From Verrucomicrobiota bacterium (GTDB taxonomy: Bacteria > Verrucomicrobiota > Verrucomicrobiia > Limisphaerales > JBBRPK01): a DNA stretch of 64,000 nt. This document shows, piece after piece, positions 47,367 through 55,596 of the stretch. Both the position numbers and the translations under genes were made by a program. Each line of letters opens with the position of its first letter. The stretch's first letter is position 1. The notes under the pieces are model-generated. The model saw only the letters and a list, made by a program, of their open reading frames with translations. It was not told where the DNA came from and made no database searches. The stretch spans positions 4,551-68,550 of the forward strand of contig JBBRPK010000010.1 of the NCBI GenBank assembly GCA_038228235.1, read 5' to 3'.

Positions 47367-48338
47367 TCATGCGGGAGGTCTGGAGGGCGGCGGGGACACA
47401 GGGGGACTCGGTAAGGACGACATAGGCCGCAGCGGGGACGGCTCTGTCCGAATCAGTTCCAACTCCTGCTCATTGGTCCGCGCATTAGGAAGGATTTCAC
47501 CGGTCCGGAGGTTGTGAAGGAGGGTGTCCTGGCTGATGGCGCCGAACTGCCAGGCCGAAACGAGGGCTTGAATTTTAACCGCACTCAGAAGCGCTGAGTC
47601 AAAGTCCGTGTTCAGCGTGTAATTGAGATGCTCAACACTGATGTCTTCCGGTTTGTTCTCCGTCGAGTGCCACCAATAGACCCAGCGCAGCACCGCATTC
47701 ATCGAGAAAGTCACCGAGGTCGAGATCGAACCGACCACGCTGCCCTCGCCAGCCTGCCGAATGGCCAAAGCTTCAGCACTCTCAGCCTCACGTTTCTGAC
47801 TTTCCAGCAGACGGGACCCCAGGACAGTCAGGAGGCGTTCAACGCGATCTAACGCCCGCTCAAAAGTCATCAAACCGTCGCCCTTAAATTCGAGATACCC
47901 AGCAGTGGCGCCAAGCGTATCAGTCACCCAGGCAGTCGTGGAGCCGATGCGCAGTTGCGCGTTCTTGTCGAAGCCCGTCACGAAGGCGGTTGGGAGCGCA
48001 GTGAAGTGCATCCCGTGTTTGTAATCGGTGTTCAGGCGGTAATGGTCAATGTTCGCGGCAACAATGTCGTCAATCGGCGATCTGTCAATCTCAGGCCGCG
48101 AATCGTTCGGGCCGTGGAAGACAAACGGGATGTTCGTCAGAGGTTTCCCCAGGCGAAGGGGCGTGAGCGTCTGGACACGCTGCCACTTCTTTTCCTTCGT
48201 CCCGTCCGGAAGGTCGAGAAGCTGCCAGATTTCAACCTGGTATCCTCTGAGCTGTCGATAATCATGGAGTCGGGGTCGTCGTACGAAACGTATGCTGAGA
48301 ATTCGACCTCGGCATCGAAAGCGATAGTGCAACCCCAT
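47367..48338 (-). pseudogene. C-terminal half of a phage portal protein (DUF4055-like), N-terminal half missing
   Basis: ..NIDHYRLNTDYKHGMHFTALPTAFVTGFD...LRIGSTTAW......GATAGYLEFKGDGL..FERALDRVERLL..LGSRLL.. matches the remembered portal/DUF4055 pattern. 323 aa is roughly half the normal portal length. Upstream sequence is frame-broken and abuts a repeat. Confidence 0.55.
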
Positions 48339-48360
48339 TGCTTCGAGGATGCAGCTTCAC

Positions 48361-48447
48361 GCCCCGGAATCCGAACCAATCCACTGCCCCGAACCTCTAG
48401 CCCTGAGCGCGGGCAGCGCGACCGGAAGCGCTGCTTCCTTCTCCGCG
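48361..48447. repeat. ~87-bp imperfect direct repeat, copy 1 (partner at 53162-53250)
   Basis: GCCCCGGAATCCGAACCAATCCACTGCCCCGAACCTCTAGCCCTGAGCGCGGGCAGCGCGACCGGAAG.. against GCCCCGGACACCGAACTAATCCACTGCCCCGGACGTATAGCCCTAAGCGCGGGCAGCGCACCCGGAAA... Contains the hairpin CTGCCCC..GGGCAG. Confidence 0.7.
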
Positions 48448-49549: not shown

Positions 49550-50000
49550 TTACATCTTTGCCAGCAGTGGCAGCAAGCACGCATTGCTCTGTTTCAGCTT
49601 CTTCGCCTTCATCCCCTCGACAATCCCCCGCATTTCATCCTTTGCCGACGTCTGCCCGTTGGTGGGCAGCTTTGGAATAGCCGATTGCAGCACCAGCGGG
49701 AAATCCTCACGCCGCCGCCCCAACCGGCAGTGCCACGATGTTCGATGGCCTCTGACCTCTGCTTCCGGGTCGCTTCCACCGCCTCAGGGGTAATTCCGAA
49801 CCACTTCTCCGCATCCGCTGGCCGGACGATCTCACGGTAATTCGTGAACACCATCCGAGGCGAGCTCCCGGCTTCCGGGCGGCTGCTTCTCGATGAGATG
49901 GCCCAGGATGCCGCAGGAGATTTTGCCTGCCAGCGAGGCGCGAGGGGGGCGCATATCCGCAGCGATCTGTAACGACCGAGCAACGAAGCTGGAAGGCAAG
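49550..50000 (-). pseudogene. Frameshifted 3' remnant of a tyrosine integrase gene (copy 1)
   Basis: ..EAGSSPRMVFTNYREIVRPADAEKWFGITPEAVEA.. is homologous to 54671-54945 (93 nt at 49772-49864 against 54741-54833, ~90% identical by eye). A LLRHPG (box II-like) segment lies upstream in another frame. The tail ..SAKDEMRGIVEGMKAKKLKQ.. is in a third frame. Confidence 0.55.
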
Positions 50001-52208: not shown

Positions 52209-52616
52209 TCAAAGTCCCCTGTCATCACCCTCTCGCCAGATCCACTCCAGCGCAGGGTCAGCCAGTCCCCACAATTTCATAGCATTCCCGCCGAAGCCCA
52301 TAGCCTCGCCCAGCCATCGCCGCCCCTCGTCCCGCCTGTTCAATCGGCAAGCCTCCACCGCAAGCGCGTAGCACGTTTCCGTCCGCAGTCCCGGCGCCAT
52401 TCTCATCACCACGGAAGCCAATTCCACCGCCGTTTCCCATTTCCCGGCAGCCGCATAGATGCGCCAGCGCACCGCCAGAACCTCCGGATGCCCCCGAAGA
52501 CGAGCATCAATCTGCTCCAGTTCCTCGTTCGCCTCGAGGTAGTTCCCCAAGCCGAGCCAACCCATGTCGGCCTCGACGAAACGCACCGCCTCGATTGGAA
52601 ACGGCCCCATATTCAT
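52209..52616 (-). CDS. Small TPR-like repeat protein (135 aa)
   Basis: GLGNYLEANEELEQIDARLRGHPEVLAVRWRIYAAAGKWETAVELASVVMRMAP shows TPR-type helical hairpin periodicity. Its ATG overlaps the HNH gene's stop (ATGA). Confidence 0.65.
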   Translation of the reverse strand: MNMGPFPIEAVRFVEADMGWLGLGNYLEANEELEQIDARLRGHPEVLAVRWRIYAAAGKWETAVELASVVMRMAPGLRTETCYALAVEACRLNRRDEGRRWLGEAMGFGGNAMKLWGLADPALEWIWREGDDRGL

Positions 52617-53173
52617 TGCACCGCCAGGACAGTCGTGAGGCCATCACCGCTCAGCAACCCGGCGTTGTTCAACTGCCTCGCCAGACTCCTCTGCCGTTGC
52701 CCGATTTTGGCGCTTTTCCCCTCATTCATCCGTAGCGGCATCAGCTCGAGATTGGCAATCACATGGTCCAGCTCCGGCGCGACCTTGAGGGGAATAATAT
52801 GGTCCACGCTCGCATGGTCGCCCGCATAAGGACCACGGCGGACCGTCGCTCCATGGCCCTTCCGCATCCCGGCTAATCCCGCCTCATCCAGACACCCAAG
52901 CCGCTCCGCAATTACCAAATTCCGCAGCATCGCCTCCGAAGTTAATTGTGCCGCCGCTCCCTTCATTCCCACGAGCGCCACCGCGTCCTTCACCACGCGC
53001 TCAGGCGGAAGTCCCGCCGCCTTGGCCTCTGCGAGTTGCGCTACATATTTCTCCACCCGCGGATTCGCCCGCCGTTGTCCCAGGGTGGCAAGTTTCGCAG
53101 GGTCAATAAGGCTGGCAACTTTCTGGGAATAACTGGCCAGTTCCACCGCAGGCACCAAGAGGGCCCCGGACAC
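52613..53173 (-). CDS. HNH-family nuclease domain protein (186 aa)
   Basis: C-terminal GDHASVDHIIPLKVAPELDHVIANLELMPLRMNEGK fits the HNH motif (DH..P...N......N). There are no zinc-binding cysteines. The N-terminal ~110 aa is unassigned. GTG start. Confidence 0.7.
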   Translation of the reverse strand: MSGALLVPAVELASYSQKVASLIDPAKLATLGQRRANPRVEKYVAQLAEAKAAGLPPERVVKDAVALVGMKGAAAQLTSEAMLRNLVIAERLGCLDEAGLAGMRKGHGATVRRGPYAGDHASVDHIIPLKVAPELDHVIANLELMPLRMNEGKSAKIGQRQRSLARQLNNAGLLSGDGLTTVLAVQ

Positions 53174-53250
53174 CGAACTAATCCACTGCCCCGGACGTAT
53201 AGCCCTAAGCGCGGGCAGCGCACCCGGAAACTCCGTTTCCTTTTCAGCCG
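53162..53250. repeat. ~87-bp imperfect direct repeat, copy 2 (partner at 48361-48447)
   Basis: See 48361-48447. It lies in the divergent region between the HNH gene and the 269-aa orphan. Confidence 0.7.
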
Positions 53251-53326: not shown

Positions 53327-54136
53327 ATGATGCTACAGTCAACCACAGAAGAATTGCTGATCGTCACGAAAACCTACCCTTCGCCAAGCACCAAATATCG
53401 AGAGACGACATGCGTTGCAGCTATCAACGTTCAAGGCCAGATGCGCCGCCTTTTTCCAGTGCCTTACCGTTTGCTCGATGGAGACTCACAATTCAAAAAA
53501 TGGGAGTGGATCAACGCGCGAATCAGCAGGGCCGACGGGGATAATCGCCCGGAGAGCCACCGCATCGACGCGGATTCAATAGATCGTCCCGGCAAAGTGA
53601 TCGCAACGAAAAATGGCGACTGGACTGAACGCCTCGGCTGGATAAAGCCCCATGTCGTGGAAAGCTTCACTGCGTTGGAGGCTCGACGCCAGAAAACCGG
53701 CGAAACCCTGGGCTTCATTCGCCCCGACCGGATCACTTTAAAAATCAGCCCGACCAAAGAGCCTGACTGGACGGACGCCGATAGAATAAAGCTCTCCCAA
53801 GATGGACTTTTCGACAGCATCGAGGTCAAGGGCCGCCACCCACTGCGTAAACTGCCGTATGACTTCCATTATGAGTACGAATCTGGCAACGAGACGCAAA
53901 CCCACAAGCTGACGGATTGGGAAATCGGGGCACTGTATTGGAAGTGCATCGCGGCCTACGGGCCGAAGGGATGGGAGGAGAAGTTCCGTCTACGGCTGGA
54001 ACAGGATTTCGCCACGAAGAATCTCCATTTGCTGATGGGCACGATTCATCGGTTCCCCGAGCAATGGCTCATCGTTGGAATTGTTTACCCGCCTAAGCAG
54101 CAACAGCTTCACGCCGAACAACTCGGCCTGTTATAG
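53327..54136 (+). CDS. Conserved-looking hypothetical protein (269 aa), no recognisable domain
   Basis: Long clean ORF with ordinary composition (LIVTKTYPSPSTKYRETTCVAAI..RLFPVPYR...DWEIGALYW..). The 3' end overlaps the DUF488 gene by 44 nt in convergent orientation. Confidence 0.65.
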   Translation: MMLQSTTEELLIVTKTYPSPSTKYRETTCVAAINVQGQMRRLFPVPYRLLDGDSQFKKWEWINARISRADGDNRPESHRIDADSIDRPGKVIATKNGDWTERLGWIKPHVVESFTALEARRQKTGETLGFIRPDRITLKISPTKEPDWTDADRIKLSQDGLFDSIEVKGRHPLRKLPYDFHYEYESGNETQTHKLTDWEIGALYWKCIAAYGPKGWEEKFRLRLEQDFATKNLHLLMGTIHRFPEQWLIVGIVYPPKQQQLHAEQLGLL

Positions 54137-54578
54137 GCCCGGTGAGATGATAAATCCGCACGCTGTCACCCGCCAGAGCAACAACCCGCTCCGCGACAAA
54201 TGAGCGGTGACAGAAATTGTAATCTTCTTCGTAACAGACAAGGCAACACCGTTCGGTTTGCATCCACGCGGCTAGGCGTTCAAGGGCTGTCTCCTGAGTT
54301 TCCAAATACTCCTTGAACCGTCGCGTATAGTTAGTCCAGTCACCATCATCCCGGTATTCATGCCGAACGGCCCGAGGGCAGCCTAACTCCGCAACATGCT
54401 CGTATTTCATGCCCCGTGCCGTCACAGCCGCTTTTAAGGCCGATTTGGCAAAGCCAGGCCGCCGACTAATCGGCAGTTCTCGCACATCCACCAGCATCGA
54501 AACGTGACACCGCTCCAGAAGCTCGAAAAACGCCTCTGGCGTCTGCCCCTCATAACCGACTGTCATTAGTTCAATCAT
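54093..54578 (-). CDS. DUF488 (YeaO-like) family protein
   Basis: LMTVGYEGQTPEAFFELL....V..LVDVRE.P.SRRPGFAK..L........Y.H...LG.P......Y.....W..Y...F..YL........L..........CL.C.E.....CHR matches the DUF488 consensus as remembered. Confidence 0.85.
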   Translation of the reverse strand: MIELMTVGYEGQTPEAFFELLERCHVSMLVDVRELPISRRPGFAKSALKAAVTARGMKYEHVAELGCPRAVRHEYRDDGDWTNYTRRFKEYLETQETALERLAAWMQTERCCLVCYEEDYNFCHRSFVAERVVALAGDSVRIYHLTGPITGRVVRREAVAA

Positions 54579-54670
54579 GGACTTGCCGCTTTTAATGCCA
54601 GAGCGAACCCGCTCCGGCCAGTTTAATCAACCCACGTATCATGCGCACAGCAAAAGCAGGTCCAACGGCC

Positions 54671-54945
54671 TCACGCCGCCGCGACCACGGGCAACGCCAC
54701 GATGTTGGACGCTGCTCCGGTCTGCCGCGCCGCCTTGGCCGCTTCCACCGCCTCAGGCGTGATTCCAAACCACTTTTCTGCATCCGTTGGCCGGACGATT
54801 TCCCGGTAATTCGTGAACACCATCCGAGGCGAGTTGCCAGCTTCCAAGGAAACCTTTGCCACGTCCTGCGTTTGCGCCACCCGATAGCTGATGAACGAAT
54901 GCCTCAGCGCATTGTGCTTCCAGGCAAAGAGCCTTTCCCCTGCCC
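54671..54945 (-). pseudogene. C-terminal ~90 codons of a tyrosine integrase (copy 3), truncated upstream by a tandem repeat, next to ssrA
   Basis: ..ERLFAWKHNALRHSFISYRVAQTQDVAKVSLEAGNSPRMVFTNYREIVRPTDAEKWFGITPEAVEAAKAARQ..* contains a box II-like H..LRHS and the catalytic-Tyr region (..NY). No N-terminal or core-binding part is present. Confidence 0.7.
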
Positions 54946-55063: not shown

Positions 55064-55415
55064 TGGTGGAGGCGGCGGGAGTTGAACCCGCGTCCCTGAA
55101 CAAGGAACCAGCCGCGACTACATGCTTAGTCAGAAGAGAGTTTCAGCCGCCGGATAACGTTCTGACCCGAATCCGGTTGCCTAGTCAGCATGGAAAAGTT
55201 TCAGCGTACCGCGCGCTGTCTCCGCGTTTCGCCAAGCCTGCTGTGGCGTTCATCCACCGTAGCAGGCGTCCAGTGGTGAACGTCGCGACACGTTAGGCCG
55301 CGAGAGCTAATTCTTGGTTAGCAGTTATTTTTGGTCCGATGATTTACGAGGCCCACGAACCATCCTCGGCATGCCGCCTCTGGCGCATTTTCCAGGTCGA
55401 AACCAGTACGCCCCC
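55064..55415 (-). ncRNA. ssrA: tmRNA (transfer-messenger RNA)
   Basis: 5' end GGGGGCGTACTGGTTTCGACCTGG and 3' end GGACGCGGGTTCAACTCCCGCCGCCTCCACCA. The acceptor stem has a G3:U70 pair and the T-arm is GCGGG-TTCAACT-CCCGC. The internal tag frame AAAAATAACT GCT AAC CAA GAA TTA GCT CTC GCG GCC TAA (55293-55322) encodes ANQELALAA. Confidence 0.92.
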
Positions 55416-55457: not shown

Positions 55458-55506
55458 GGATGAACAGACGGCAGTGGCATCGTGACAATTTGAATCCTCC
55501 CATGGC

Positions 55507-55569
55507 AGGACGAGTTCCACGAGTCCCGATTTCCTCGAGGGTCGATCAGGGACTCGTGGAACTCGTCCT
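55507..55569. repeat. Long-hairpin repeat, family B, copy 3
   Basis: AGGACGAGTTCCACGAGTCCC (21-nt loop) GGGACTCGTGGAACTCGTCCT. It lies between the SGNH-like gene and ssrA. Confidence 0.85.
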
Positions 55570-55596
55570 TCCCAGGGGGGCGACTGAAAGGCCTAA

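Follow-up and report, generated by a model that had tools for sequence, protein, structure and literature searches.

A coupled pair of HNH-type nuclease and TPR genes in a Verrucomicrobiota genome as a probable relic of an exported-nuclease module

The gene pair and its truncated nuclease gene

We analyzed a 64,000-nucleotide (nt) stretch of DNA, hereafter the window, from a Verrucomicrobiota bacterium of the order Limisphaerales (assembly GCA_038228235.1, contig JBBRPK010000010.1, positions 4,551 to 68,550 of the forward strand), focusing on two adjacent minus-strand genes at window positions 52209-53173. In the open reading frame (ORF) listing, the upstream gene (52613-53173) starts with GTG and encodes an HNH-type protein of 186 amino acids (aa), and the downstream gene (52209-52616) starts with ATG and encodes a 135-aa protein related to tetratricopeptide repeat (TPR) proteins. 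The original prediction for this DNA, made from the letters alone, had described the two ORFs as coupled. Their coordinates were confirmed, as was the overlap of stop and start at 52613-52616, where the genes share four bases (ATGA) on the minus strand. Judged from the reading frames, the pair is tightly coupled, with the ATGA predicted to mediate translational coupling, and the same overlap is present in an intact homologous pair at another locus (L037). Because both proteins are conserved elsewhere, the two ORFs are real genes and not chance frames.

The HNH ORF of the window has no signal peptide, unlike nearly all of its relatives, a point overlooked in the original prediction together with the adjoining PDC-M19 candidate pair and a nearby transfer-messenger RNA (tmRNA) gene. 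An in-frame stop lies 27 codons upstream of the gene, and no ATG, GTG or TTG occurs before the called GTG. At about codon 5, which corresponds to a position in the middle of the signal peptide, the coding sequence meets the boundary of a dispersed repeat of ~110 nt, termed D2. This D2 copy (53163-53248, minus strand) is cut at ...TCCGGGGC and fused to the HNH gene. D2 occurs in five copies in this genome, with the core GGTTCGGGGCAGTGGATTGGTTCGGAGTCCGGGGCGTGAAACTGCATCCTCGAAGCAA. In the other four, the repeat runs on into GTGAAACTGCATCCTCGAAGCAA; the HNH-side copy instead stops at TCCGGGGC and passes directly into the HNH coding sequence. What the gene has lost amounts to ~13 codons, comprising the n-region and half of the h-region, plus the native upstream region.

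The junction between the repeat and the HNH gene is spanned by two Logan assemblies from two samples with zero differences, and an assembly artefact at the repeat was rejected because these two further assemblies span the junction identically. The minus-strand DNA that separates the HNH gene from its divergent neighbour yielded no sigma-70-like promoter, no RNA-seq run containing the locus was found, and no second copy of the nuclease is present in this genome. The window HNH gene is a 5′-truncated copy in which a dispersed repeat stands in place of the signal-peptide codons.

A divergent HNH family with export signals

Homologs of the 186-aa protein numbered 1,329 in a collection of 5.8 billion proteins, all of them labelled 'hypothetical' and lacking a precomputed Pfam domain, and a profile search put the family at 1,087 clusters (50% identity), for which neither Pfam nor NCBIfam has a model. 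The window protein matched the Pfam HNH model at E=0.043, with 14.4 bits against a cut-off of 21.4. Weak Pfam HNH matches were obtained for 15 of 15 aligned members, including matches to HNH_4, the Cas9-type model, in seven of them; the curated Pfam threshold of PF01844 or PF13395 was not reached by the family, the best E among the 15 members being 0.0055. Because these scores stay under threshold, the family represents a divergent, unmodelled branch of HNH proteins. The 186-aa protein itself matched nothing in NCBIfam or PADLOC, and its matches in PHROGs were weak and pointed to endonuclease VII and HNH proteins. A comparison profile was built from the canonical Cys4 HNH proteins that related genomes encode; hhalign aligned it to the family profile at E=1e-4, with the DH, N and N(x2)K motifs in register.

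The structure of the nuclease was predicted by AlphaFold2 from a 56-sequence alignment, which yielded a model with a predicted local distance difference test score (pLDDT) of 96.4 and a predicted TM-score (pTM) of 0.91. The model comprises five helices (residues 7-104), a strand at residues 120-125, a second strand at 142-146, a helix at 147-152 and two C-terminal helices, and both this AlphaFold2 layout and the Foldseek comparisons indicate a predicted beta-beta-alpha-metal fold. It replaced a first model from a 15-sequence alignment, in which residues 126-148 of the HNH core had a pLDDT <50 and for which the Foldseek search was meaningless. With the whole chain of the 56-sequence model, Foldseek found no PDB match with E<1 (best E=1.0). 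The matches to HNH endonucleases in BFVD were local only (35 columns, root-mean-square deviation 1.0 Å, probability 0.90). The five-helix N-terminal domain has no structural neighbour in PDB or BFVD. The earlier remark that the ~110-aa N-terminus is unassigned held up, as this region was unmatched in Pfam, NCBIfam, PADLOC and PDB sequences. Searches of PDB sequences with the nuclease, whether as a single sequence or as a profile, returned noise (a globin at E=0.05-0.9) and were set aside.

The HNH core occupies residues ~119-153 of the 186-aa protein, with D124, H125, N141, N150 and K153 as its signature residues. Among 56 diverse members, these positions were conserved in 51 (D124), 48 (H125), 56 (N141), 51 (N150) and 52 (K153) sequences. 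The histidine preceded by aspartate, the structural asparagine and the metal-binding asparagine of the helix are all present in the window protein. A core without cysteines had also been predicted, and indeed the DHASVDHIIPL..NLELMP..MNEGK motif was found and contains no cysteines. The family shares with the HNH superfamily (PF01844; PF13395 HNH_4) the D-H ... N ... N(x2)K pattern, here (S)VDHIIP ... IANLELMP ... MNEGK, but differs from it in lacking CxxC zinc pairs, in being fused to the five-helix domain, and, unusually among HNH proteins, in carrying a Sec signal peptide or lipobox. Family members are strongly basic proteins of ~200 aa, with an isoelectric point (pI) of ~10 (9.7 for the window nuclease). 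Longer members offered no informative domain fusions, and their extensions resemble over-called ORFs. From the modelled fold and the aligned motifs, we conclude that the 186-aa protein belongs to a divergent, unmodelled branch of the HNH superfamily, in which the active-site signature is intact and the N-terminal domain is new; members of this family presumably act as nucleases.

In a hydrophobicity screen, 106 of 117 homologs had a signal peptide or lipobox at the N-terminus; because of this high proportion we regard the family as exported. The homologs begin with a basic n-region, followed by a hydrophobic stretch, an AxA-type site and then a conserved 'YA..(V/I)(A/S)xLIDPAKL' segment. Two seeming exceptions among the closest relatives (P0004 and P0002) regained a full signal peptide when they were read from an upstream GTG start. 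Each of four relatives from IMG/VR contigs likewise begins with a signal peptide or a lipobox, and signal peptides are present in all five intact partner-bearing nucleases that were read (L034, L037, L038, L062/P0005). By their sequences, members of the family are predicted to cleave nucleic acids in the periplasm or outside the cell, and such export fits poorly with an intracellular toxin-antitoxin system or an abortive-infection effector. Several small exported nucleases are known, some of them encoded on mobile elements, among them EndA/Vvn of the endonuclease I type and Serratia-type NucA, both beta-beta-alpha-metal nucleases that act in the periplasm or extracellularly, and the periplasmic PLD-family Nuc of plasmid pKM101. 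These belong to different families, and no sequence match to them appeared in the searches run.

Of 301 genomes of the order, 41 encode the nuclease, mostly in one copy per genome. All sampled members of two genera (g46 and g68) carry a distant clade of the gene (38-47% identity); in these genera it is passed on vertically, has no partner gene and keeps a fixed place next to ABC-transporter and GntR genes, as a housekeeping gene might. Members of the close clade (>50% identity) occupy varied sites, including sites between housekeeping genes and on putative viral contigs. Four IMG/VR contigs carry relatives of the nuclease, and tblastn against phage and plasmid collections gave no match. One close-clade copy is the last gene of an N6_N4-methylase and ResIII operon on an integrative element with a DUF3987 primase and an HTH_17 excisionase, and another follows an HSDR_N_2/N6_Mtase fusion and a gene for a 493-aa protein of unknown function. 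At L053:2962-8600, L054:2669-8434 and L062:2557-7002, the nuclease gene occupies the final or penultimate position in restriction-modification-like operons with gaps of 10-14 nt.

If these predictions are right, they describe a large family of exported nucleases with an HNH fold (>1,000 clusters at 50% identity) and a new helical domain that no Pfam or NCBIfam model covers, resident in soil and sediment Verrucomicrobiota and in their mobile elements. The turnover of extracellular DNA, biofilms and DNA uptake are all shaped by nucleases that cells export, and for that reason a new family would be useful for the annotation of metagenomes.

The TPR neighbour and the nature of the pair

The 135-aa protein matched TPR_19 at E=7e-4 and TPR_2 at E=0.007, both below threshold. 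Its relatives gave clearer matches: TPR_19 was found in 18 and TPR_14 in 16 of 20 relatives (best E=4.6e-12), and through them the TPR profiles recognize tandem 34-residue helix-turn-helix repeats, in agreement with the original description of a TPR-like partner. The window protein has no signal peptide and a pI of 4.98, the TPR proteins overall ranging from 4.7 to 5.7. It is a short variant with one helical hairpin (~35 residues) fewer than the usual ~165-aa family members, a form common to P0123, which is 66% identical to it, and to the 128-aa partner of the closest intact nuclease at L062. The TPR family is present in 268 of the 301 genomes in 1-7 copies, with another member in the genome studied here at C55:28305-28511. 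Its first ~75 residues are well conserved (..AAxGWLELGNxxEANEELExIxPxLRAHPDVL..). At L037:1472-2026 (G127:C1091), a TPR gene paired with an exported HNH gene that is itself intact is broken by an in-frame stop, which sits in a short duplicated segment (..RTEE*..RTEE..) and reflects either decay or an assembly error.

For the close nuclease clade, the association of the two genes was surveyed at 20 distinct loci. A TPR homolog lies beside the nuclease at seven of the 20 loci: downstream with an ATGA overlap (the window and L037), downstream after a 12-nt gap (L062-64), upstream (L034 and L035), divergent (L036), or downstream with one gene between (L038). TPR is the sole neighbour family that recurs across lineages of the close clade, and no other conserved partner of the nuclease was found in the loci surveyed. 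With 2-3 TPR genes per ~4,500 genes, adjacency by chance would be ~0.2%. Because the observed frequency far exceeds this value, the link between nuclease and TPR gene is real and non-random. It is, however, neither obligate nor exclusive. TPR genes adjoin none of ~22 distant-clade nuclease loci and are absent from 13 of the 20 close ones, so that the pattern expected for an obligate toxin and its protector was not observed. Nor was that of a dedicated, co-evolving protector, as the TPR genes mostly stand beside other genes and the HNH-adjacent ones are scattered on the tree of TPR proteins. On this maximum-likelihood tree, built from 85 sequences, the seven proteins encoded beside HNH genes required 7 changes compared with a mean of 6.8 after shuffling, and well-supported branches force at least three TPR lineages among them.

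It may be that the two genes have no direct link, both being common island passengers that persist here as decaying leftovers, the nuclease having lost its start region and the TPR gene an internal segment. The ubiquity of the TPR family and its heterogeneous neighbours speak for this explanation, as do the absence of a single HNH-adjacent TPR clade and the variation in geometry (upstream, downstream, divergent, or with one gene between). The internal stop in the L037 TPR gene and the truncation of the window HNH gene at a dispersed repeat that also abuts a broken DUF4055 portal gene are in keeping with it as well. Such an explanation does not account for a pair at seven of 20 loci when ~0.2% is expected, nor for repeated independent juxtaposition with ATGA overlaps in two lineages, which indicates selection for co-expression. 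In addition, the short TPR protein is a variant rather than a damaged copy, because the same form is found in the L062 partner and in P0123. We consider the lack of a direct link rather unlikely.

Our preferred interpretation, to which we give somewhat less than even confidence, is that an exported nuclease is accompanied by a cytoplasmic TPR protector and that the window pair is a relic of such a module. In intact modules (L062, L037 and L034), an exported nuclease and a signal-less TPR protein would be co-transcribed. Most likely, the TPR partner would hold the precursor of the nuclease in the cytoplasm and so prevent damage before export, following the logic of barnase/barstar and NucA/NuiA. 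In the general principle of a secreted nuclease with an intracellular inhibitor, a cytoplasmic inhibitor shields the producer before export (PMC2790893, PMC13522737). As in the families described here, barnase/barstar of Bacillus and NucA/NuiA of Anabaena each consist of an exported basic nuclease encoded beside a small acidic protein without a signal peptide. Barstar and NuiA have no sequence or fold relation to the TPR partner, which belongs to a ubiquitous family. Unlike those inhibitors, the TPR partner is found at no more than about one in three close loci and also beside unrelated genes, and its inhibition of the nuclease is a prediction.

In the window, the module lies in a decayed island by the tmRNA gene, where the repeat has displaced both the signal peptide and the native upstream region. 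If the window nuclease is still expressed, it would be retained in the cytoplasm and would depend on the TPR protein. Because the repeat replaced the nuclease signal peptide and the native upstream region, the window pair is most likely a relic, probably left over from an exported-nuclease module rather than representing a new toxin or defence system.

Several observations weigh against the protector interpretation. Its weakness lies in how promiscuous the TPR family is: the family is far commoner than the nuclease (268 compared with 41 of the 301 genomes) and is encoded beside many unrelated genes, a distribution that appears unlike that of a dedicated inhibitor. The HNH-adjacent TPR proteins are dispersed over the TPR tree without forming a single clade, and the majority of nuclease loci show that the partner is not required. 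At two loci the nuclease closes a restriction-modification-like operon, an odd position for an exoenzyme that served nutrition alone. That the protein cuts nucleic acids, is exported and is bound by the TPR partner are predictions. Finally, the window ORF is fully open and its catalytic residues are intact, so 'relic' is a provisional description.

A related possibility is that the nuclease is a Sec-dependent secreted toxin directed against competing bacteria, with the TPR protein as cytoplasmic immunity protein and the five-helix domain serving uptake by the target cell. A signal peptide, a nuclease and an adjacent small protein without a signal peptide constitute the layout of polymorphic toxins that depend on the type II secretion system (T2SS) or Sec (PMC3482391), and the gene organization described here agrees with it. 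The patchy, island-borne distribution in 41 of 301 genomes would also be consistent with such a toxin, and TPR copies without a nuclease would then be 'orphan immunity' genes. However, most nuclease genes have no conserved partner of any kind, and in g46 and g68 the gene shows vertical inheritance and a fixed context. The nuclease is highly conserved, with 60-75% identity across many lineages, rather than polymorphic. Furthermore, the N-terminal half of the TPR protein is conserved order-wide, unlike fast-evolving immunity proteins, and the nuclease has no recognisable delivery or receptor domain. Taken together, these features make a secreted toxin improbable.

The neighbourhoods of the TPR family were sampled at 80 loci from 80 genomes of the order (L106-L185), and 51 operonic neighbours were scanned for domains, as a sample without a control set. 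The TPR gene is often translationally coupled to its upstream gene. Same-strand neighbours include GDSL hydrolases (three, two of them with a 4-nt overlap), response regulators, GNATs and an MFS transporter, as well as S41 and trypsin-like peptidases, GH16 and cpYpsA-SLOG proteins. A gene for a CAP12/Pycsar-type TIR protein adjoins a TPR gene with a 4-nt overlap, and a PLDc_2 nuclease gene with a signal peptide overlaps the TPR gene at L117. At the domain level, PADLOC models were matched by ~6 of the 51 neighbours in this uncontrolled sample. At L119:577-3231 (G175:C23), a TPR member, a HIT gene, a gene for a 347-aa canonical HNH protein and one for a staphylococcal-nuclease homolog with a signal peptide lie on the same strand.

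These neighbours raise the idea that the small TPR protein is a constant partner of interchangeable enzymes. Candidates for such partners are the exported HNH protein, the PLD nuclease, the CAP12/Pycsar-type TIR, cpYpsA-SLOG, GDSL hydrolases and peptidases, often with stop/start overlaps. The window pair would then be one damaged instance of a widespread and so far undescribed two-gene 'effector + TPR brake/sensor' conflict architecture in Verrucomicrobiota, a generalization to which we attach only a small probability.

The same neighbours bear on whether the pair could be a two-gene anti-phage module, one case of a 'TPR + variable effector' architecture with TPR as sensor or brake and HNH as effector. 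Rare effector-type domains are present among the 51 operonic neighbours, including the TIR with its 4-nt overlap, the overlapping DrmC-like PLD nuclease, the HIT, HNH and SNase group, cpYpsA-SLOG and a trypsin-like peptidase. Moreover, the window pair adjoins the PDC-M19 candidate system, and other nuclease copies end restriction-modification-like operons. Nevertheless, most TPR neighbours in this sample are ordinary genes, and the pair was not found with PDC-M19 elsewhere. Neither protein was matched by PADLOC-DB 2.0; the PADLOC check that had been suggested for the pair gave no name for either protein and no match at E<=0.1. The putative effector is exported in nearly all relatives and thus ill-suited to intracellular sensing. 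We consider an anti-phage role improbable.

The original suggestion of a toxin/immunity or defence pair was therefore supported in part. An intact HNH core, tight coupling, a recurrent TPR neighbour and an accessory island beside a PADLOC candidate are all present, but the nuclease family is exported and mostly partnerless, the TPR family is promiscuous, PADLOC provides no name, and the window copy is 5′-truncated. The proposed gene-neighbourhood check was similarly divided between the close-clade loci that have an adjacent TPR gene and the remaining close loci and distant clade that do not. As a caution, a small nuclease followed by a small repeat protein is not safely called a toxin/immunity or defence pair from sequence alone.

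What is new is an exported HNH family that no model covers and beside which TPR genes recur; the kinds of protein themselves are known. If the protector interpretation is true, a cytoplasmic TPR partner would be a new answer to the problem of producer protection, which is handled elsewhere by barstar or NuiA. The results also highlight a small TPR family that is very common and whose role is unassigned. The window locus itself matters little, being a truncated copy in a decaying island.

Repeats and neighbouring genes in the surrounding island

The surrounding island of the window pair is decayed. A second D2 copy in the window (48338-48446) forms a repeat pair, over 48361-48446, with that at 53163-53248, and the remaining three copies are on other contigs of the same genome (G000), at C124:363-444, C111:1183-1261 and C108:15165-15224. 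Two D2 copies abut 5′-truncated genes, namely the HNH gene and a DUF4055 (phage portal-like) ORF on the minus strand at 47367-48338 (323 aa, E=3e-30), which is apparently N-terminally truncated after the D2 copy. One D2 copy directly follows a type I HsdR gene. An origin of D2 as a tRNA- or tmRNA-derived att site or as a structured RNA was rejected, with no Rfam match and a fold z-score of -0.7. In related genomes, weak partial matches to D2 were found in 3 of 100.

The gene divergent from the HNH gene (53327-54136, plus strand) encodes a 269-aa PDC-M19B-like protein (PADLOC PDLC04508, E=7e-56; phrog_25907, E=3e-37). It is convergent with a DUF488 / PDC-M19A-like gene on the minus strand at 54093-54578 (Pfam DUF488, E=5e-29; PADLOC PDC-M19A, E=8e-35), with which it overlaps by 44 nt. 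PDC-M19, consisting of a DUF488 protein and a ~270-aa partner, is thus the immediate neighbour of the pair at 53327-54578, but its genes are unrelated to the HNH and TPR genes and unlinked to them at every other locus examined. A unit in which the pair travels with PDC-M19 or with other island ORFs was rejected, since no co-occurrence was seen at the other loci examined.

A repeated segment of 40-70 codons is present in two copies at 49705-49876 and 54669-54845, which are 83-89% identical and encode ..MVFTNYREIVRP(A/T)DAEKWFGITPEAVEA... The original prediction had placed the pair in an 'integrase-littered' setting, and a reading of both segments as integrase tails was considered. This could not be verified, as the segments matched no Pfam integrase, no full-length integrase of the genome and no plasmid. 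A tmRNA gene was identified on the minus strand at 55064-55415 by ARAGORN and by Rfam (RF00023, 172.5 bits), and the accessory island with the HNH/TPR pair is probably anchored there. Directly upstream of the tmRNA gene, a 32-nt inverted repeat (55496-55580) with 88% complementarity encloses a 21-nt loop.

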